DNA of 64,000 nucleotides, taken from positions 21,172 to 85,171 of the forward strand of contig PLSX01000216.1 of NCBI GenBank assembly GCA_003165315.1, given 5' to 3'. Numbering within the stretch: position 1 is the stretch's first letter; each line of letters starts with the position of its first letter. The notes under the pieces are model-generated. The model worked only from the letters and a program-made list of their open reading frames with translations, searched no databases and was not told the DNA's origin. Shown piece after piece: positions 42,063 to 49,144 of the stretch. Origin of the DNA: Acidobacteriota bacterium. Its GTDB lineage: Bacteria > Acidobacteriota > Terriglobia > UBA7540. Position numbers and translations under genes: made by a program.

Positions 42063-42866
42063 TCATCGAGTGATATTTCGCAGATGCTCCACGCTATAAA
42101 GTTTGGCCAGCAAATCGACATTCTGAACAGGGCGGCCCGCGGCGGGGGGCACGTAGAGAGTGAATCCCGCATGAAGCTGTTCCGCTCGCTCGCCCATCTC
42201 CTCCAGCGCAAACCGCAAAATGGTCGGCGGCATCAAGGGGTGAGGCGAGCAGTACATGGCCACCACCGGGTGCCCCGCCGGATAGAATTGCTTCAGGTGG
42301 GTGACGAAGCGCGTGAATCGTTCCGGGCGCGAAATCCGGTGGCTATGTAGTGCGGTTTCGATGGGGCCGATTTGCCAGATGATGGCAGGCACATCGTTTT
42401 GCAAGGGCCGCCGGCGAAGAAGCAGGTCCGTGGCCTCATACATCTGCAGGCCATGAACGACGGGGTCAAGCCGCAGGTCTGCAAGCAATGCATCAAGGGC
42501 GGAGACGCCCGGCAGGATTTCCACTTCGAGTTTAAGCGCTTTCGCCATTTCCAGCACCAAAAAGGGCGCGTGAACCGCCACCACCGGATGCCCGTGAATG
42601 GCGAAGGTCACGGGTGGATTTCCCAGCGCCGCCTGCACCACCTTGATCGCCATGTGCTCATAGGCACTCAGACGCGGACGTTCGTCGAAATAGCTCTGCT
42701 CAAAAAGGGCCGTGACCTTCGGGCATAAACTTCTCAGGTAAGCCTCGGTGGCTACCCCCGCATCGAGATAGAGGACCTCACGCGAGGCGCGTAGTGCCTG
42801 CTCAACTTCGCGCGTAACTTGATTGATGCCCCGCACTCCGAGTCCGGCGATCCAGATGTCCGTCAT
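42063..42866 (-). CDS. borosin-type (OphMA/SonM-like) SAM-dependent peptide alpha-N-methyltransferase, tetrapyrrole-methylase fold
   Basis: 267 aa with GLGVRGINQVT, SYFDERPRLSAY, FAIHGHPVVAV, LPGVSALDALLADLRLDP, YEATDLLLRRRP, IIWQIG and LYVPPA. By eye these match remembered OphMA/SonM strings in the same order. It lacks the GxGPGD loop of cobalamin/sirohaem methylases. Confidence 0.7.
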   Translation of the reverse strand: MTDIWIAGLGVRGINQVTREVEQALRASREVLYLDAGVATEAYLRSLCPKVTALFEQSYFDERPRLSAYEHMAIKVVQAALGNPPVTFAIHGHPVVAVHAPFLVLEMAKALKLEVEILPGVSALDALLADLRLDPVVHGLQMYEATDLLLRRRPLQNDVPAIIWQIGPIETALHSHRISRPERFTRFVTHLKQFYPAGHPVVAMYCSPHPLMPPTILRFALEEMGERAEQLHAGFTLYVPPAAGRPVQNVDLLAKLYSVEHLRNITR

Positions 42867-43702
42867 CGCACATCTCCCTGGTGCAAGGCATGCAAGAGAT
42901 CCACCAGCCTGTTGTATTTCTCACTGCTTGAAGCGTTGCGGACTGCGGCCACTGCGGCCTCCACCGGCGCGGAATCAAGGGGACTCTTAAAGGGAGAAGC
43001 GTCTATGTCCCCGGAGCTTTCCGGCGGTGGCGGCAGGGTGACGCTCGAAGCAGGGAGAAACGAACCCCACATGCCCAGCTGAGGATTTCCGTATGCATTT
43101 TGAGATTGCACCGCGGCAATCCGGATGACCGCATACAGGGGCGCAAGTGGTTCGCCGGGAAGCACTGTGCCAGCGGGGGATGGCAGACTGGCCGGGTCAA
43201 TACCATCCGTCAGGGGATTCACCCAAAGCACATAGCTGATTCCTTTGAATTGACCGTTCTCGCGCAGCGCGCAGGGAACCACGGTCAATGCCATCAGGCT
43301 ATCCGGCAGCGCGCGCGCGGCACTCTCCTCGGCAGGTGCAACGGGCACGGCTGGCGCTTCCCCTGCTGGCATGGGCATGCTGGCCACATCGGCCGGGATC
43401 TCGTCCATCGCAGGCGGCGCTGGGGATTTCATTCTGCGTTCCAGCGCCGCGCCCAGCAAGGGGAGCAGACGGTGGTCAGGCCGCCGCAGAAGTTCGCGCT
43501 CCTCCACAGTGAGATCATAAATCTGAAAAACCTCGTCGGGGGATTCCAGCAAGCGTTGGCAAAGGTCCGGTTGAAGCGCCGACTCTATGAGCAACTCGTC
43601 GATTTTGGGTTTCGCCACAGTCGTCCTGTCTTTTGGTGAAGATGTGATGGTCGTAATGGATTTGGGCGAACAGAATACCACGGCGGGCAAAGCTGAAATC
43701 AA
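42863..43702 (-). CDS. borosin precursor-like protein: N-terminal borosin-binding-domain-like helices plus a long C-terminal extension
   Basis: Its stop overlaps the methyltransferase start (ATGA). The N-terminal KIDELLIESALQPDLCQRLLESPDEVFQIYDLTVEERELL resembles the SonA-type leader. The likely start is GTG 43618, with AGGA 5 nt upstream, giving ~251 aa. Confidence 0.55.
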   Translation of the reverse strand: MISALPAVVFCSPKSITTITSSPKDRTTVAKPKIDELLIESALQPDLCQRLLESPDEVFQIYDLTVEERELLRRPDHRLLPLLGAALERRMKSPAPPAMDEIPADVASMPMPAGEAPAVPVAPAEESAARALPDSLMALTVVPCALRENGQFKGISYVLWVNPLTDGIDPASLPSPAGTVLPGEPLAPLYAVIRIAAVQSQNAYGNPQLGMWGSFLPASSVTLPPPPESSGDIDASPFKSPLDSAPVEAAVAAVRNASSSEKYNRLVDLLHALHQGDVR

Positions 43703-43826: not shown

Positions 43827-44321
43827 TCAGTTTGGTTCCTGCTTCCGCGTGAACCGGTAATTGCGAATGGCGAAAGCGAGTGCCGGGGAATTCTTATTTC
43901 CGCGAGTCTTCTTATCAACGCGGACAACCTCACATTTGCAAATGACCTCGGCATGGGAGCCATCGGCTCTCGTTGGGGGAACTTCAAGCCTCACATCAAC
44001 CATGGTTGAAGGCTTCAGGATCGACTTCGTCCGGAACAGGACCCCTGTATGGCTGACGTTCTCCGTCCGTGCCTCATGCCACTCCGTGCTGTCCGCGGTC
44101 CGATAGCGCACAGGCAGTTGGACCAGGAAGCGAGCCGCCCGAGTCGAGCCTTCCGGTTCTCTTCTTGCCATGGTGTCGTTTTCTTCTGTGCTGGTGGTGG
44201 CCAGTTGAGCTTTTGTTATCATATTTCTTTCTTGCACCTTCAAATCTATCATTTCCGGCTTTGAGAGTTGCCGACTTCCCCGCCTTCGAGAAGCTAGGTC
44301 TTTGTTCACAGCATGCCTCAT
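43827..44321 (-). CDS. PilZ-domain protein (c-di-GMP motif partly degenerate)
   Basis: ...TRAARFLVQLPVRYR...ENVSHTGVLF... The (D/N)xSxxG motif is present and the RxxxR motif is imperfect. The start is uncertain (Met at 44321, 44252, 44222 or 44171). Confidence 0.55.
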   Translation of the reverse strand: MRHAVNKDLASRRRGSRQLSKPEMIDLKVQERNMITKAQLATTSTEENDTMARREPEGSTRAARFLVQLPVRYRTADSTEWHEARTENVSHTGVLFRTKSILKPSTMVDVRLEVPPTRADGSHAEVICKCEVVRVDKKTRGNKNSPALAFAIRNYRFTRKQEPN

Positions 44322-44612
44322 GCCAAAAGGCCAAATAGTTGATGCGGCCTAAAAGTCCGAAATCACACGACTTACAGGTTTTTGTGAATGTATAAGCTGG
44401 CGCGCCAGGAATAAGATGGGAAGATTTTTATTTCCCAGGTAATGTCTACACGGCAGGGTCCAGGGGAGTTGCCCGCAACCCGTCCAGTTCTCCCGGATCG
44501 GGAGATTGCGTTTGCCGCAGTCCCAAGTTGGTCCCGGCGGAGGCATTCCCTTCCCGCCCTACCGGTCCATTGCATTAATGTCGTTCCCCCTCGAATTTCC
44601 AGACCTAAAATC

Positions 44613-45197
44613 ATGGCAAGGGCGAGGGCGCACGTGCTAAACTTCAATCCAACGCCAAGGAGGATGACCAGACCGTTGAGCCTACCCTCGATACCACCCA
44701 CGGCAACCCCCTGCGCGCAATGTGGCGCCCCCCTTAATCCTGCAGAAACCGCTCACATCTGCCCACATGGTTGCGGAACGTTGCACATGCAATGTGTCGA
44801 CGCCCATTCCACGAAGCACAAGCCGCCAAAATCTCCCGAGGCGGAACCTGTTGATGCCCCAACATTACCCGGCATTGGAACGCTTTGCCCGCAATGTGGC
44901 GCCCCTGTCCATCCTGAAGAAACGGCGCACGTCTGCCCTTACGGTTGCGGGACAGTTCACCTGCAATGCCTCTACGCCCATTCCAGGAAGCACAAACCAA
45001 TAAATTCTTCCGAGCCCGAACGCGTGAACCTTCCTCCATTACCCGCCATTGGAACGCATTGTGCGCATTGTTATGCTCCCATCAAGCCGGAAGAAACAGT
45101 TCAGGTTTGCACTTATTGCTGCGGAACCCTGCATGTGGTATGTGTCGACTCCCATAATGCCAGGCACAACCAACCACATTCTCACCCCTGGGTTTAG
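44613..45197 (+). CDS. Cys/His-rich protein made of three tandem 58-aa zinc-binding-like repeats
   Basis: The first Cys codons of the three repeats are at 44712, 44886 and 45060, an exact 174-nt period. Each repeat has C-x2-C-x12-C-x3-C-x3-H-x2-C-x3-H-x3-H. The start is uncertain (Met 44613, or 44667 directly after AAGGAGG). Confidence 0.6.
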   Translation: MARARAHVLNFNPTPRRMTRPLSLPSIPPTATPCAQCGAPLNPAETAHICPHGCGTLHMQCVDAHSTKHKPPKSPEAEPVDAPTLPGIGTLCPQCGAPVHPEETAHVCPYGCGTVHLQCLYAHSRKHKPINSSEPERVNLPPLPAIGTHCAHCYAPIKPEETVQVCTYCCGTLHVVCVDSHNARHNQPHSHPWV

Positions 45198-47798: not shown

Positions 47799-48341
47799 AT
47801 GATGAATAGAAAATCCAGAGCTAAAAAGACTCGTCGCTTAATGGCAGGTGGCCGGCCCAGAGTCCTTGATCTGTTCTCTGGATGCGGCGGTCTTTCTCTC
47901 GGGTTGCATCGGACCGACTTTGAGATCGTCGCCGCTGTCGAGATTGACCCATTGGCGGCAGCCTCCCATAGGCTGAATTTCCACGGTGGTCTCGATAAAA
48001 TCGAGTCAGGTGATCTGGCCCGAGACATTACCAAAGTGGAAGCCGAAGAGTTAATGGGGGAGTCCGCTCCCGGAATACCACCTAATGAAGCAATTGACGT
48101 AATTGTCGGTGGCCCACCGTGTCAGGCCTTTGCCAGAGTGGGCAGAGCTAAACTCCGCGAGGTCCAGGACCACCCTACAGCCTTCAAACAGGACCCCAAA
48201 GGAAATCTCTACCTCCGTTATCTCGACTACGTCCGGCGTCTTGAGCCCTTGGCGATTCTGATGGAAAACGTGCCTGACGTATTGAACTACGGCGGACACA
48301 ATATCGCAGAGGAGACCTGCAAGGCCGCGATTTCTTTGTGA
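47799..48341 (+). pseudogene. DNA (cytosine-5)-methyltransferase, N-terminal half only
   Basis: Motif I DLFSGCGGLSLG, motif IV GGPPCQAFARVG and motif VI ENVPDV are present. The ORF stops ~25 codons later, so motifs VIII-X and the target-recognition domain are absent. Confidence 0.75.
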
Positions 48342-48349
48342 GGCCGTCT

Positions 48350-49144
48350 CTAGGGACGGAAAATATTCTGTCGGTGGTACTCTACGAATTCTGAACCGGG
48401 GCGGAACCTCTCGGGCATCCTTAAGGGACTTCCTTCGATTGATACAAACTCACGCTGCAGGCTCTGGTTGGGCAAGTAAGCTCGTAGGCGCGAGCTCAAG
48501 ACCAATTGCATGTCAGTGCCAAAGGTGATCAGCCCACTGTCAAATGCTCGGTCAAGGTGAGCGGCAAGGCACAGTCCGTTGCTGGGGTTGAGCCGCTGCT
48601 CCGGGAAATCACCCCACGGCAGGATGTGACTCGCAATCAACAACTGAGGGACCGGATTGCCGGTCACGCAGCACTGCCATCCGTACGCCGCAAGAACAGC
48701 CTTCCTGAAGAAGCTTTGCATGACGCGCACCTGAACGCTGGCTGTCCTCTCAGTTGGCTGGGTTGGAGCCGGTAGCACTATCTCAGCCGCACCCACCTTC
48801 TTCTTGACCGGCTTCTGATCTACAGCAAGTACGTCTTCCAATAACCTTTCGCTTTCGCTCGCCATTCTTGACCAATTCGCGTGAAACTCTTGCCACACCT
48901 CCTTATCCATGCGGCTCACTCCCTTCAACCCGGAGACGCCCCTGGCCTGATGGGCTGGATCAAGAGACGCGAAGTTGACCAGTTTCATTGCAATGCTACT
49001 GGGAGTTCTACCGAGCGCGCTGGCGAGGGCAATCACACTCGGATTGCGCGCATGCATCTGGCCGAACGGAAGCGTAAAGTAGAGATTGCACGCAACGATC
49101 AATTCGTCATGGCGCCAGAGCCTTCCTTTGATAGCGGACGGCAT
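48350..49144 (-). CDS. HNH-family restriction-type endonuclease (COG3183-like)
   Basis: The C-terminal ...CCVTGNPVPQLLIASHILPWGDFPEQRLNPSNGLCLAAHLDRAFDSGLITF is the HNH_2-type motif. It is convergent with, and abuts, the truncated methyltransferase. Confidence 0.75.
   Translation of the reverse strand: MPSAIKGRLWRHDELIVACNLYFTLPFGQMHARNPSVIALASALGRTPSSIAMKLVNFASLDPAHQARGVSGLKGVSRMDKEVWQEFHANWSRMASESERLLEDVLAVDQKPVKKKVGAAEIVLPAPTQPTERTASVQVRVMQSFFRKAVLAAYGWQCCVTGNPVPQLLIASHILPWGDFPEQRLNPSNGLCLAAHLDRAFDSGLITFGTDMQLVLSSRLRAYLPNQSLQREFVSIEGSPLRMPERFRPGSEFVEYHRQNIFRP

Follow-up and report, generated by a model that had tools for sequence, protein, structure and literature searches.

A conserved two-gene cassette of soil Acidobacteria pairs a borosin-type N-methyltransferase with a large partner carrying a predicted borosin-binding bundle

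[quoted passage not shown] Both genes lie on the reverse strand of the 64-kb window, by which we mean the whole stretch of DNA that was analysed, and neither has a second copy within it. The first gives a borosin-type peptide backbone α-N-methyltransferase at 42063..42866 (−) (267 aa, ATG start, stop codon 42063-42065) and the second a partner protein at 42866..43618 (−) (251 aa from the GTG at 43618, stop codon 42863-42865), within a maximal ORF that extends to a TTG at 43702. A first-pass annotation of this DNA had described the two ORFs as 42063-42866 (−), 267 aa, and 42863-43702 (−), 279 aa from TTG, and both are present as described. Borosins are the only ribosomal peptides known to carry backbone N-methylation, and very little is known of what bacterial borosins do biologically.

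The methyltransferase was compared with solved structures and with family profiles. In a phmmer search of the PDB, only borosin N-methyltransferases matched at E ≤ 1 (25 of 25 matches), and these solved-structure relatives were OphMA, dbOphMA, MroMA and SonM and none else. OphMA matched over the full length of the enzyme (residues 4-256, E 1.6e-28) and SonM matched at E 8e-17. The gene might also be read as an ordinary tetrapyrrole (precorrin or uroporphyrinogen), RsmI-type or YabN-type methylase beside an unrelated upstream gene. This would agree with the automatic labels of its homologs (581 at E ≤ 1e-5), which are 'precorrin-3B methylase' or 'siroheme synthase', with Pfam, where PF00590 alone was found and spans only the N-terminal half of the protein (E 1.2e-11), and with the top NCBIfam match, YabN (E 2.7e-16). 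However, the YabN match reached 59.6 bits against a cut-off of 525 bits, every NCBIfam score was far under its family cut-off, the NCBIfam precorrin families gave E values of 0.01 or higher, and no CobA, CysG, CbiL or RsmI chain was among the PDB matches at E ≤ 1. The GxGPGD-type SAM loop is absent from the enzyme, the corresponding loop being G-L-G-V-R-G, no cobalamin or sirohaem genes were found near the cassette, and the enzyme is strictly paired with, and in relatives fused to, a protein bearing a borosin-binding domain (BBD). We regard the tetrapyrrole-type reading as effectively refuted.

Structural modelling of a homolog gave the same picture. P0393 is a natural partner-methyltransferase fusion in which the enzyme domain shares 69% identity with the window methyltransferase; the best 50 Foldseek matches of its model were all borosin N-methyltransferases, and it matched SonM at E 1.8e-21 with a TM of 0.80-0.84. 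In a published survey, MBC8164876.1, which adjoins a protein 43% identical to the partner, has a -log10 E of 50.1 for the BorosinMT HMM versus 14.2 for PF00590 (Lee et al. 2024, bioRxiv 10.1101/2024.01.09.574750). Judged by its sequence relationships, the enzyme belongs by family to the borosin-type α-N-methyltransferases and not to the precorrin, sirohaem or RsmI methylases. The first-pass call of a borosin N-methyltransferase is upheld by the borosin-only PDB matches, the precorrin E values and the SonM-like P0393 model, and profile searches gave the enzyme no place among precorrin, uroporphyrinogen or RsmI methylases. Pfam detected no extra domain, consistent with a discrete enzyme of 267 aa. 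This family assignment shows a clade of ~267-aa proteins of peat and soil Acidobacteria, annotated as 'precorrin methylase', to be mis-annotated.

A putative catalytic 'side clamp' is located at 42660..42692 (−), with the sequence Y59-F-D-E-R-P-R65-L-S-A-Y69. Y59, R65 and Y69 align with Y66, R72 and Y76 of OphMA and Y58, R67 and Y71 of SonM, giving the window enzyme and SonM a common Tyr/Arg/Tyr triad. R65 and Y69 are invariant among 26 clade members and Y59 is kept in at least 90% of them; in SonM, the mutations Y58F, R67K and Y71F lowered catalytic efficiency 14- to 98-fold. Unlike SonM, which has the borosin 'YGHP' motif, the window enzyme reads I-H-G-H-P, with Tyr replaced by His (H91-G-H-P94; 42585..42596 (−)). 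G92, H93 and P94 are invariant in the alignment of the 26 members, and they are preceded by H, Q or P in the window clade and by Y in more distant short homologs. The Y93F mutation in SonM reduced efficiency just 1.6-fold, pointing to a minor role of this Tyr in catalysis. 'YGHP' and 'DCLFAD' correspond to the NMT_2 and NMT_1 HMMs, respectively, of the antiSMASH/RODEO rule. For MBC8164876.1, the enzyme of a family member, the RODEO table of Lee et al. 2024 has no NMT_2 match and records a 'DCLFAD' match; at this position the window sequence S-A-L-D-A-L-L-A-D-L is aligned to SAEDCLFADL of OphMA. The window motif strings quoted in the first-pass annotation all occur in the translation. Among the comparison strings given beside them, GTGIESIGQMT, YYDNGKSRLNTY, FYGHPGVFV, LPGVSAEDCLFADLCIDP and YEASDFLIRDRP agree with OphMA in the alignment, whereas 'LLWQIA' and 'LLIPPA' differ from OphMA, which has LVLFQVG and FYIPPKA.

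The two genes meet in a coupling junction at 42863..42879 (−). An AGGGAG Shine-Dalgarno sequence (42874-42879) is positioned 7 nt upstream of the methyltransferase start, within the last codons of the partner, and the start and stop codons overlap in ATGA (42863-42866). At all 26 of 26 loci the methyltransferase start reads ATGA or GTGA and has a GGAG-type motif 7-9 nt upstream, and the end of the partner alignment coincided with the methyltransferase start at 21 distinct loci. These features show that translational coupling of the two genes, already proposed from the ATGA overlap, is real and conserved. The partner most likely starts at the GTG at 43618 and begins MAKPKIDELL, since most homologs begin there and an AGGA precedes this codon. 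Translation probably does not include the 28 additional residues of the 279-aa ORF.

We surveyed homologs of both proteins and the loci that encode them. The partner family has at least 157 proteins, typically ~217-290 aa in length; among 1.84 billion proteins, 174 representative clusters belong to it. Because there are 581 methyltransferase homologs and at least 157 partner homologs, neither ORF is a chance frame. The gene pair occurs widely among soil Acidobacteria, and the host, initially called Acidobacteria-like, is confirmed as acidobacterial. The cassette is conserved with its long partner, the methyltransferase being immediately downstream of the partner at 32 of 32 loci. No recurring neighbour was detected, whether protease, exporter or transporter, GGDEF or PilZ gene, or regulator, and the next commonest gene was present at 5 of 30 loci. 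The earlier observation that no protease or exporter adjoins the genes held in the window and extended to 30 other loci. Since the methyltransferase trails the partner at every locus and no other neighbour recurs, the cassette is an autonomous two-gene unit. A PilZ gene lies upstream in the window and is missing at L001, L004 and L007. Toxin-antitoxin and restriction genes nearby prompted us to consider a role in anti-phage defence; PADLOC gave no match for either protein and this candidate was rejected.

Residues 1-64 of the partner (43427..43618 (−)) are predicted by AF2 to form a five-helix bundle of the BBD type. The helices are at residues 6-15, 17-25, 27-31, 38-45 and 51-64 (pLDDT 86-93 in the model of the partner alone), and the same five helices appear in the model of the P0393-type fusion homolog with pLDDT 92-98. 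The partner family profile matched residues 328-362 of gallate dioxygenase (a LigA-like cap) at E 2e-4; individually, 43 of 94 family members weakly matched LigA and 22 of 94 weakly matched PF14407, and the NCBIfam NHLP-clan model matched the partner at E 0.0049. Structural homologs of BBDs cap the active sites of dioxygenases (PMC8429565). The 43%-identical homolog of the partner, MBC8164877.1, has -log10 E values of 8.64 for BBD_A, 5.43 for BBD_B and 8.14 for BBD_old, with 'Precursor has a BBD domain' = 1 (Lee et al. 2024). SonA itself was not found at E ≤ 10 with either the partner sequence (phmmer) or the family profile (hmmsearch), nor by structure, the partner model having no Foldseek match below E 0.14. 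Sequence divergence among BBDs is reported to be high. Collectively, the AF2 bundle, the LigA-like cap match and the BBD HMM matches of a family member indicate that the partner N-terminus is, as modelled, a five-helix bundle of the BBD type, and they support the earlier suggestion of a leader-like N-terminus.

Two aliphatic patches that had been noted in the partner are placed within folded helices by the AF2 model. 'LLPLLGAAL', thought to lie past the leader, is helix 5 of the bundle; it was also considered as a free core peptide and rejected, being helix 5 in the partner and fusion models alike. By analogy with SonA, partner helix 5 may still enter the active site transiently, because helix 5 of SonA can unwind and, with the SonA core, is metamorphic. 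The second patch, 'VEAAVAAV', forms a helix within the folded C-terminal domain, and it too is no free aliphatic core.

Between the bundle and that domain, residues 65-100 (43319..43426 (−)) form a predicted disordered linker rich in Pro, Ala, Ser and Glu. Its pLDDT is below 50 in the model of the partner alone and 52-61 in the fusion model, its length varies from 15 to 37 residues, and its alignment entropy is 2.24 bits versus about 1.0-1.35 bits in the rest of the partner. The C-terminal region that follows is modelled as a conserved and confidently folded α/β domain of ~150 aa with no relative in the PDB (best Foldseek match E 0.14). It starts with a conserved four-stranded β region and a Pro-rich loop, PPPPE..G....SPF (residues 101-216; 42971..43318 (−)), in which the strands have pLDDT 90-96 and the loop 63-66, and T112, P115, C116 and W132 show complete or almost complete conservation in the alignments. 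The domain ends in a helix pair, VEAAVAAVRNA...YNRLVDLLHAL (residues 217-251; 42866..42970 (−)), with AF2 helices at 217-227 and 234-245. V226, A229, Y235 and L241 are invariant in a 23-sequence alignment of the partner; in a 94-sequence alignment, V226, A229 and L241 are invariant and Y235 is present in at least 90%. Pfam, NCBIfam and PADLOC gave no match for the C-terminal region, Pfam recognised no domain in the whole partner, and the partner contains no sequence repeats. The C-terminal domain is not a typical RiPP core.

More distant relatives join the two proteins. Natural partner-methyltransferase fusions include P0325, P0383, P0389, P0356, P0350, P0382 and P0393, among others, in the order binding domain, middle region and methyltransferase. 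All fusions retain the bundle and the stretch after it, whereas the β region or the helices are variably lost; the PPPPE...SPF loop is absent from P0393-type fusions and the β region from P0394. In many of them the β domain continues covalently into the methyltransferase. The helix-pair module directly precedes the methyltransferase domain in P0394, P0325, P0391 and P0350, with 0 of 500 shuffles reaching an equal score. A possible counterpart of the helix pair in the Bryobacteraceae precursor MBC8164373.1 was rejected, 115 of 500 shuffles equalling the score, and one in the pre-enzyme helices of FpeAM and SkoAM was likewise rejected by shuffles. The AF2 model of the fusion was confident overall, its pTM of 0.71 versus 0.48 for the partner alone favouring a functional link between the two proteins, but it left the active site without a confidently positioned segment.

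For binding, methylation site, stoichiometry and product fate, we infer the following scheme. Translational coupling would provide the SAM-dependent methyltransferase and its cognate protein substrate in fixed proportion. The partner bundle would serve as a leader that docks on the methyltransferase, the docked complex probably being 2:2 as in SonM-SonA. Docking would feed the flexible stretch C-terminal to helix 5 (residues ~58-100, the Pro/Ala linker) into the active site, where Y59, R65 and Y69 would polarise the backbone amide for methyl transfer from SAM. By analogy, the linker would be the most likely region of the partner to be methylated, because its position matches that of the SonA core (at 62-71, behind a BBD of residues 1-53; PMC8429565), of SamA1 Phe52 and of type 0 cores. 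In the characterised systems that carry the BBD on the precursor, methylation occurs ~10 residues past the bundle or between bundle and enzyme (SonA, SamA1 Phe52, SkoAM/FpeAM). The linker may, however, be a mere spacer, since it is ~20% proline, which cannot be N-methylated, and is hypervariable. The C-terminal α/β domain could provide a second docking element or, left unmethylated, be a payload or a functional domain. The docking model gives this conserved domain only a speculative role.

That domain could instead be the product. The segment past the bundle would be marked by methylation, and a protease encoded at a distance would then free the unmethylated ~150-aa C-terminal domain. There is a precedent in shewasin A biosynthesis, where SamM1 methylates Phe52 alone, just past the bundle, and SamP cuts between Phe53 and Pro54 efficiently only if the precursor is methylated, freeing an unmethylated peptide. 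The conserved part of the window partner is likewise C-terminal to the variable segment, and RiPP protease genes are often outside the cluster. We nonetheless consider such methylation-licensed release distinctly unlikely: no protease recurs near the cassette at 30 loci, release of a folded 150-aa domain is unprecedented in RiPP pathways, and a β domain that is covalently joined to the methyltransferase in many fusions fits a released payload poorly.

Methylation might also fall within the domain itself, with the C-terminal strands (ALTVVPCA, YVLWVNP and LYAVIRIAAVQ) or the PPPPE...SPF loop as substrate and the fold being remodelled or blocked. Borosin cores are often aliphatic runs and the enzymes have little sequence preference; the metamorphic behaviour of the SonA core and helix 5 also favours this idea, as do the conservation and moderate pLDDT of the loop and a published Bryobacteraceae precursor with a hydrophobic core where the profile aligns β strand 1. 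However, the β region is predicted to be a stable sheet (pLDDT >90), which makes threading into the active site difficult; MBC8164877.1 and, as described above, P0393-type fusions lack the loop, P0394 lacks the β region, and the likeness of the MBC8164373.1 C-terminus to the helix pair was not significant in the shuffles. Direct methylation of the folded domain therefore appears quite improbable, and methylation past the bundle remains our preferred reading.

A broader, tentative and rather unlikely suggestion is that the cassette is not a natural-product system and that backbone N-methylation of a 250-aa cytoplasmic protein, in its flexible segment or in a strand or loop, controls the release, stability or activity of its C-terminal domain. 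If true, methylation of the amide backbone would here, for the first time, serve to regulate a protein instead of tailoring a RiPP. The family represents a minimal, self-contained borosin, consisting of a coupled gene pair that lacks a protease or exporter and has a partner with a conserved folded domain. It offers a clean test of whether borosin enzymes act on proteins as well as on short excised peptides, and of the role of extra domains in large borosin precursors. If the partner turns out to be a type-IV-like precursor of the ordinary kind, extended by a spacer and a follower domain, the family, already diverse, would modestly gain one more architectural type.

Among the closest known systems is SonM/SonA, the type IV split borosin of Shewanella oneidensis (PDB 7LTC, 7LTE; PMC8429565). 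As there, the methyltransferase is a discrete protein of ~265 aa with no fused binding domain, and the precursor starts with the five-helix BBD, the bundle residing on the window partner and not on the enzyme. Type IV precursors are short (~50-100 aa) and terminate in the core, SonA having 71 aa with its core at the end, whereas the window partner has 251 aa and continues through a linker into a conserved folded domain of ~150 aa. Unlike the SonM/SonA locus, which is gammaproteobacterial, the window cassette has an acidobacterial host and no GGDEF gene or protease nearby. Similarly, SamM1/SamA1/SamP of Shewanella amazonensis (shewasin A) carries the BBD on the precursor, but SamA1 is a 78-aa protein that has an acidic tail, and its cluster encodes a dedicated A1 peptidase, whereas no peptidase accompanies the window cassette.

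Among the fused borosins, type 0 SkoAM and FpeAM (Lee et al. 2024) and the 'type XI' XulAM (PMC11395268) share their domain order with the fused relatives of the window pair. The window pair itself differs in being split into two proteins with a stop codon between them. SkoAM and FpeAM receive 10-14 methylations between binding domain and enzyme, in low-complexity sequence (Lee et al. 2024). Unlike the window system, they have a canonical FYGHPG and DVDV or Ser/Thr-rich cores, they lack the β domain and helix pair of the window partner, and their N-termini were not detected by the partner profile.

Members of the same family already published are MBC8164877.1 and MBC8164876.1 from a Bryobacteraceae MAG, which have the same two-gene layout and a partner 43% identical over its full length (E 5e-54), although without the PPPPE...SPF loop. 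MBC8164877.1 is scored as a valid precursor by RODEO, with a BBD match beside a BorosinMT match (Supplementary Dataset 2, Lee et al. 2024); it appears there as a table row alone, and the text of the paper never names Acidobacteria. The partner family is already listed as a borosin precursor in a published table, and the novelty is smaller than the first-pass annotation held. The size of the partner, which had been noted as unusually large, also has parallels in types VI and VIII, where large precursors with extra regions are found (SliA, ~300 aa; PmoA-type, ~600 aa; Imani et al. 2021). Their binding domain is fused to the methyltransferase, whereas that of the window system is on the partner, and their cores stand out as TEVX or DVDV repeats, whereas the window partner is free of repeats. 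In type VIII the core lies mid-protein with about 160 aa after it (Imani et al. 2021). Lengths of about 60-600 aa are stated for borosin precursors, and SliA at 300 aa and a type VIII precursor at about 600 aa have been validated; the 251 aa of the window partner fall within this range.

The enzyme encoded at 42063-42866 on the minus strand (267 aa, ATG start) matched in Pfam only the generic TP_methylase fold, over its N-terminal half (PF00590, 1.2e-11). No NCBIfam family scored above its cut-off on the enzyme, the best being YabN (59.6 bits; cut-off 525 bits); precorrin families scored E≥0.01. YabN-like domains serve as the outgroup in the borosin field's own work. A sequence search of the PDB at E≤1 returned 25 distinct sequences, all of them borosin peptide N-methyltransferases, led by OphMA (1.6e-28, residues 4-256) and followed by dbOphMA, MroMA and SonM (8e-17); no CobA, CysG, CbiL or RsmI chain was among these matches. 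These matches agree with the first-pass annotation, which had assigned the enzyme to the borosins. All the window strings on which that assignment was based were present in the translation and most of the OphMA strings given for comparison matched the alignment; the exceptions were 'LLWQIA' and 'LLIPPA', for which OphMA has no match. Enzyme residues Y59, R65 and Y69 aligned with OphMA Y66, R72 and Y76, equivalent to SonM Y58, R67 and Y71, where mutation lowers efficiency 14- to 98-fold or abolishes activity. Across 26 clade enzymes R65 and Y69 were invariant and Y59 was present in at least 90%. The YGHP signature was replaced by HGHP in the enzyme, the Tyr position being H, Q or P throughout the clade. 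Since SonM-Y93F, at the equivalent Tyr, loses only 1.6-fold in efficiency, with a higher KM for SAM as the chief effect, we treat HGHP as a trait of the clade rather than a mark of an inactive enzyme. The fold was tested on a model of P0393, a natural partner-methyltransferase fusion with an enzyme domain 69% identical to that of the window. The top 50 Foldseek matches were all borosin enzymes (SonM TM 0.80-0.84). The rival identification as an ordinary tetrapyrrole methylase is effectively refuted, and the annotations of public homologs as 'precorrin-3B methylase' or 'siroheme synthase' are wrong.

The partner gene lies directly upstream, its maximal ORF (42863-43702, minus strand) giving 279 aa from the first TTG. 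Its true start is most likely the GTG at 43618, because most homologs start at exactly that position and an AGGA lies upstream; this yields a protein of 251 aa with the N-terminus MAKPKIDELL. As first described, the partner TGA overlaps the enzyme ATG in an ATGA (42863-42866, minus strand). A Shine-Dalgarno sequence, AGGGAG, lies 7 nt 5' of the enzyme ATG within the final codons of the partner, and a GGAG motif with an ATGA or GTGA start was found in 26/26 loci, bearing out the proposed translational coupling. The C-terminal residues of the partner (…G-D-V-R; 42866-42880, minus strand, and likewise in L001-L034, the fetched loci) share bases with the GGAG and the methyltransferase start codon, so their conservation may be owed in part to this translational signal and not to the function of the protein.

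The long partner was directly followed by the methyltransferase in all 32 fetched loci whose contig extends past the partner, and in 21 distinct loci the methyltransferase started just where the partner alignment ended. When the flanking ORFs of 30 loci were clustered, nothing else was conserved (the next commonest neighbour occurred in 5 loci), and Pfam context differed completely between loci. As the first-pass annotation had noted for a protease or exporter in the window, no conserved protease, exporter, GGDEF gene or regulator was found near the cassette in these 30 loci. There was no second copy of either gene in the 64-kb window, and direct reading of the partner sequence revealed no signal peptide or hydrophobic N-terminus. 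The cassette is an autonomous, translationally coupled two-gene unit, apparently cytoplasmic. A PilZ-domain protein gene (PF07238, 2.5e-9) lies immediately upstream on the same strand (43827-44321), and c-di-GMP (GGDEF) genes are enriched in published borosin clusters (56%). The PilZ gene is absent from L001, L004 and L007, so its link to the cassette may be coincidental. The GC content of the cassette (42063-43618) is 60.5% vs 56.5% for the 64-kb window, and its surroundings differ in nearly every genome. These features fit a mobile or often-relocated module; no mobility genes flank the cassette.

No Pfam domain was found on the partner, whose family comprises at least 157 proteins (first search) and 174 representative clusters in a set of 1.84 billion proteins. 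Consistent with the Acidobacteria-like host first suggested, members came only from Terriglobia, Bryobacterales, Solibacter and Sulfopaludibacter MAGs and two Planctomycetota MAGs. The cassettes of L027 (a Gemmataceae MAG) and L033 (a Planctomycetota MAG), with partners 42-43% and enzymes 67-69% identical to those of the window, suggest horizontal transfer or binning error. Alignment, per-region entropy and an AF2 model (mean pLDDT 81) divided the partner into five regions. Residues 1-64 form five helices (6-15, 17-25, 27-31, 38-45 and 51-64; 1.01 bits, pLDDT 86-93), followed by a Pro/Ala/Ser/Glu-rich linker at 65-100 (15-37 residues in the family; 2.24 bits, pLDDT below 50). Residues 101-189 form four long β-strands with T112, P115, C116 and W132 (nearly) invariant (1.10 bits, pLDDT 90-96), 190-216 a conserved Pro-rich loop, PPPPE..G....SPF (1.35 bits, pLDDT 63-66), and 217-247 a helix pair (1.29 bits, pLDDT 89-94 for most, lower at the C-terminal end). 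The two supposed aliphatic patches were reassigned by the model: LLPLLGAAL, thought to follow the leader, lies within bundle helix 5, and VEAAVAAV in the first helix of the C-terminal pair.

The borosin-binding domain (BBD) is defined as a bundle of five helices (SonA 1-53) from which most of the binding energy comes; domains of homologous structure form caps over the active sites of dioxygenases (PMC8429565). Five N-terminal helices were predicted both for the partner alone and in the fusion model, and the partner-family profile matched the gallate dioxygenase LigA-like C-terminal cap (E 2e-4). Among 94 family members, 43 weakly matched Pfam LigA and 22 the RiPP-leader family PF14407; NCBIfam gave a weak NHLP-clan match on the partner (E 0.0049). 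SonA was not detected with the partner by sequence (single or family profile) or by Foldseek, as might be expected given reports that what BBDs conserve is secondary structure and not sequence. The strongest evidence is a row in Supplementary Dataset 2 of Lee et al. 2024 (bioRxiv 10.1101/2024.01.09.574750) for MBC8164877.1, a Bryobacteraceae protein of 225 aa with 43% full-length identity to the window partner (E 5e-54). It is listed with 'Valid precursor' = Y, 'Precursor has a BBD domain' = 1, and -log10 E of 8.64 for BBD_A and 8.14 for BBD_old. Its adjoining 268-aa enzyme has -log10 E of 50.1 for BorosinMT and 14.2 for PF00590, with the DCLFAD motif HMM positive and the YGHP motif HMM negative. 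Together, these results uphold the borosin leader-like N-terminus proposed for the partner. Two other acidobacterial predicted BBD precursors in Dataset 2 of that study, MBC8164373.1 and OLC43585.1, have quite different cores, one with a poly-Thr run then TIVAVIVVVAIVVFVAAVG and the other with a Gly/Lys-rich tail; the partner profile detected only their N-terminal bundle.

A profile search revealed a partner-like module N-terminal to the methyltransferase in P0325 (518 aa), P0383, P0389, P0356, P0350 and P0382. Further relatives, P0390-P0399, include the acidobacterial-type fusions P0393, P0395, P0397 and P0399, with enzyme domains 63-69% identical to that of the window. P0393 is present on 5 contigs, the longest being 444 kb, and is therefore no assembly artefact. 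Such 'Rosetta stone' fusions indicate that the two window proteins act together. The gene order matches the published 'type 0' architecture of SkoAM and FpeAM; these belong to a separate lineage, with canonical FYGHPG and DVDV or Ser/Thr-rich cores, and were not detected by the partner profile. The fusion P0394 lacks the β region, P0393, P0395, P0397 and P0399 lack the loop and helix pair, and P0382 keeps a single hairpin. In P0393, P0395, P0397, P0399 and P0291 the partner ends after the fourth β-strand (…LLQSSN), with loss of the loop and helix pair, and a new Pro/Ala linker leads to the methyltransferase. Besides the bundle, only the Pro/Ala-rich stretch that follows it was kept in every fusion.

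An AF2 run on P0393, with an alignment pairing both halves, gave a confident model (pLDDT 86.5; pTM 0.71 vs 0.48 for the partner alone), and the two modules are therefore predicted to pack against each other. In the proposed mechanism the bundle would dock on the enzyme and so guide the flexible segment that follows helix 5 to the catalytic centre. We favour this segment because known sites also follow the bundle and every fusion keeps the stretch: the SonA core (62-71) begins 9 residues past the bundle (PMC8429565), SamA1 has a single methylation at Phe52, directly after it, and type 0 enzymes carry 10-14 methylations in the low-complexity stretch between binding domain and enzyme. That methylation occurs there is a prediction, not a result. 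The linker is 20% proline and hypervariable, which counts against it as the site. In the P0393 model it had pLDDT 52-61, confidence within the enzyme was lowest at the two active-site clamps, and no substrate segment was confidently placed in the active site.

The C-terminal domain of the partner is as conserved as the bundle, is confidently folded (AF2) and has no solved relative (best Foldseek E 0.14), features that do not mark a hypervariable RiPP core. It may be an unmethylated payload freed by methylation-dependent cleavage, as in the precedent of SamA1/SamP, but the cassette has no associated protease. Alternatively, the domain may itself be methylated, in its aliphatic strands or conserved loop, although some relatives do without the loop and some without the strands. 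A third option, a structural or docking module, is consistent with the helix pair, which is significantly common to the window partner, P0394, P0325, P0391 and P0350 (0/500 shuffles as good) and in these four fusions immediately precedes the enzyme N-terminus.

The borosin enzyme class, split architectures, BBD-bearing precursors and large precursors are already published. Partner size, first held to set the system apart, does not do so, as precursors of 300 aa (SliA) to ~600 aa (type VIII) are known within a stated range of ~60-600 aa. Nor is the partner family wholly new, since MBC8164877.1 is in a published prediction table. In the literature searched we found no description of a conserved folded C-terminal domain on a BBD-bearing precursor, of a strictly autonomous cassette of two genes or its distribution in Acidobacteria, of an HGHP/QGHP clade of enzymes, or of a family of cognate partner-methyltransferase fusions. 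The chief value of the cassette is as a clean system for asking if borosin enzymes modify proteins.

Two further features lie near the cassette. A restriction-modification pair ~4 kb away comprises an ORF for a cytosine-5 DNA methyltransferase (MTase_II, 5.5e-31) and a restriction endonuclease of the HNH type (5.7e-92), at 47799-48341 (plus strand) and 48350-49144 (minus strand). Against profiles of 344-412 positions, the methyltransferase ORF aligns with no more than the N-terminal ~130-140 and so may be truncated or frameshifted. The ORF at 44442-45197 (plus strand, 251 aa) contains three tandem Cys/His-rich repeats of ~60 aa each (C-x2-C...H-x-C-P-x-G-C-G-T-x-H-x-x-C...H), with a marginal C1_2 zinc-finger match (6.7e-6).
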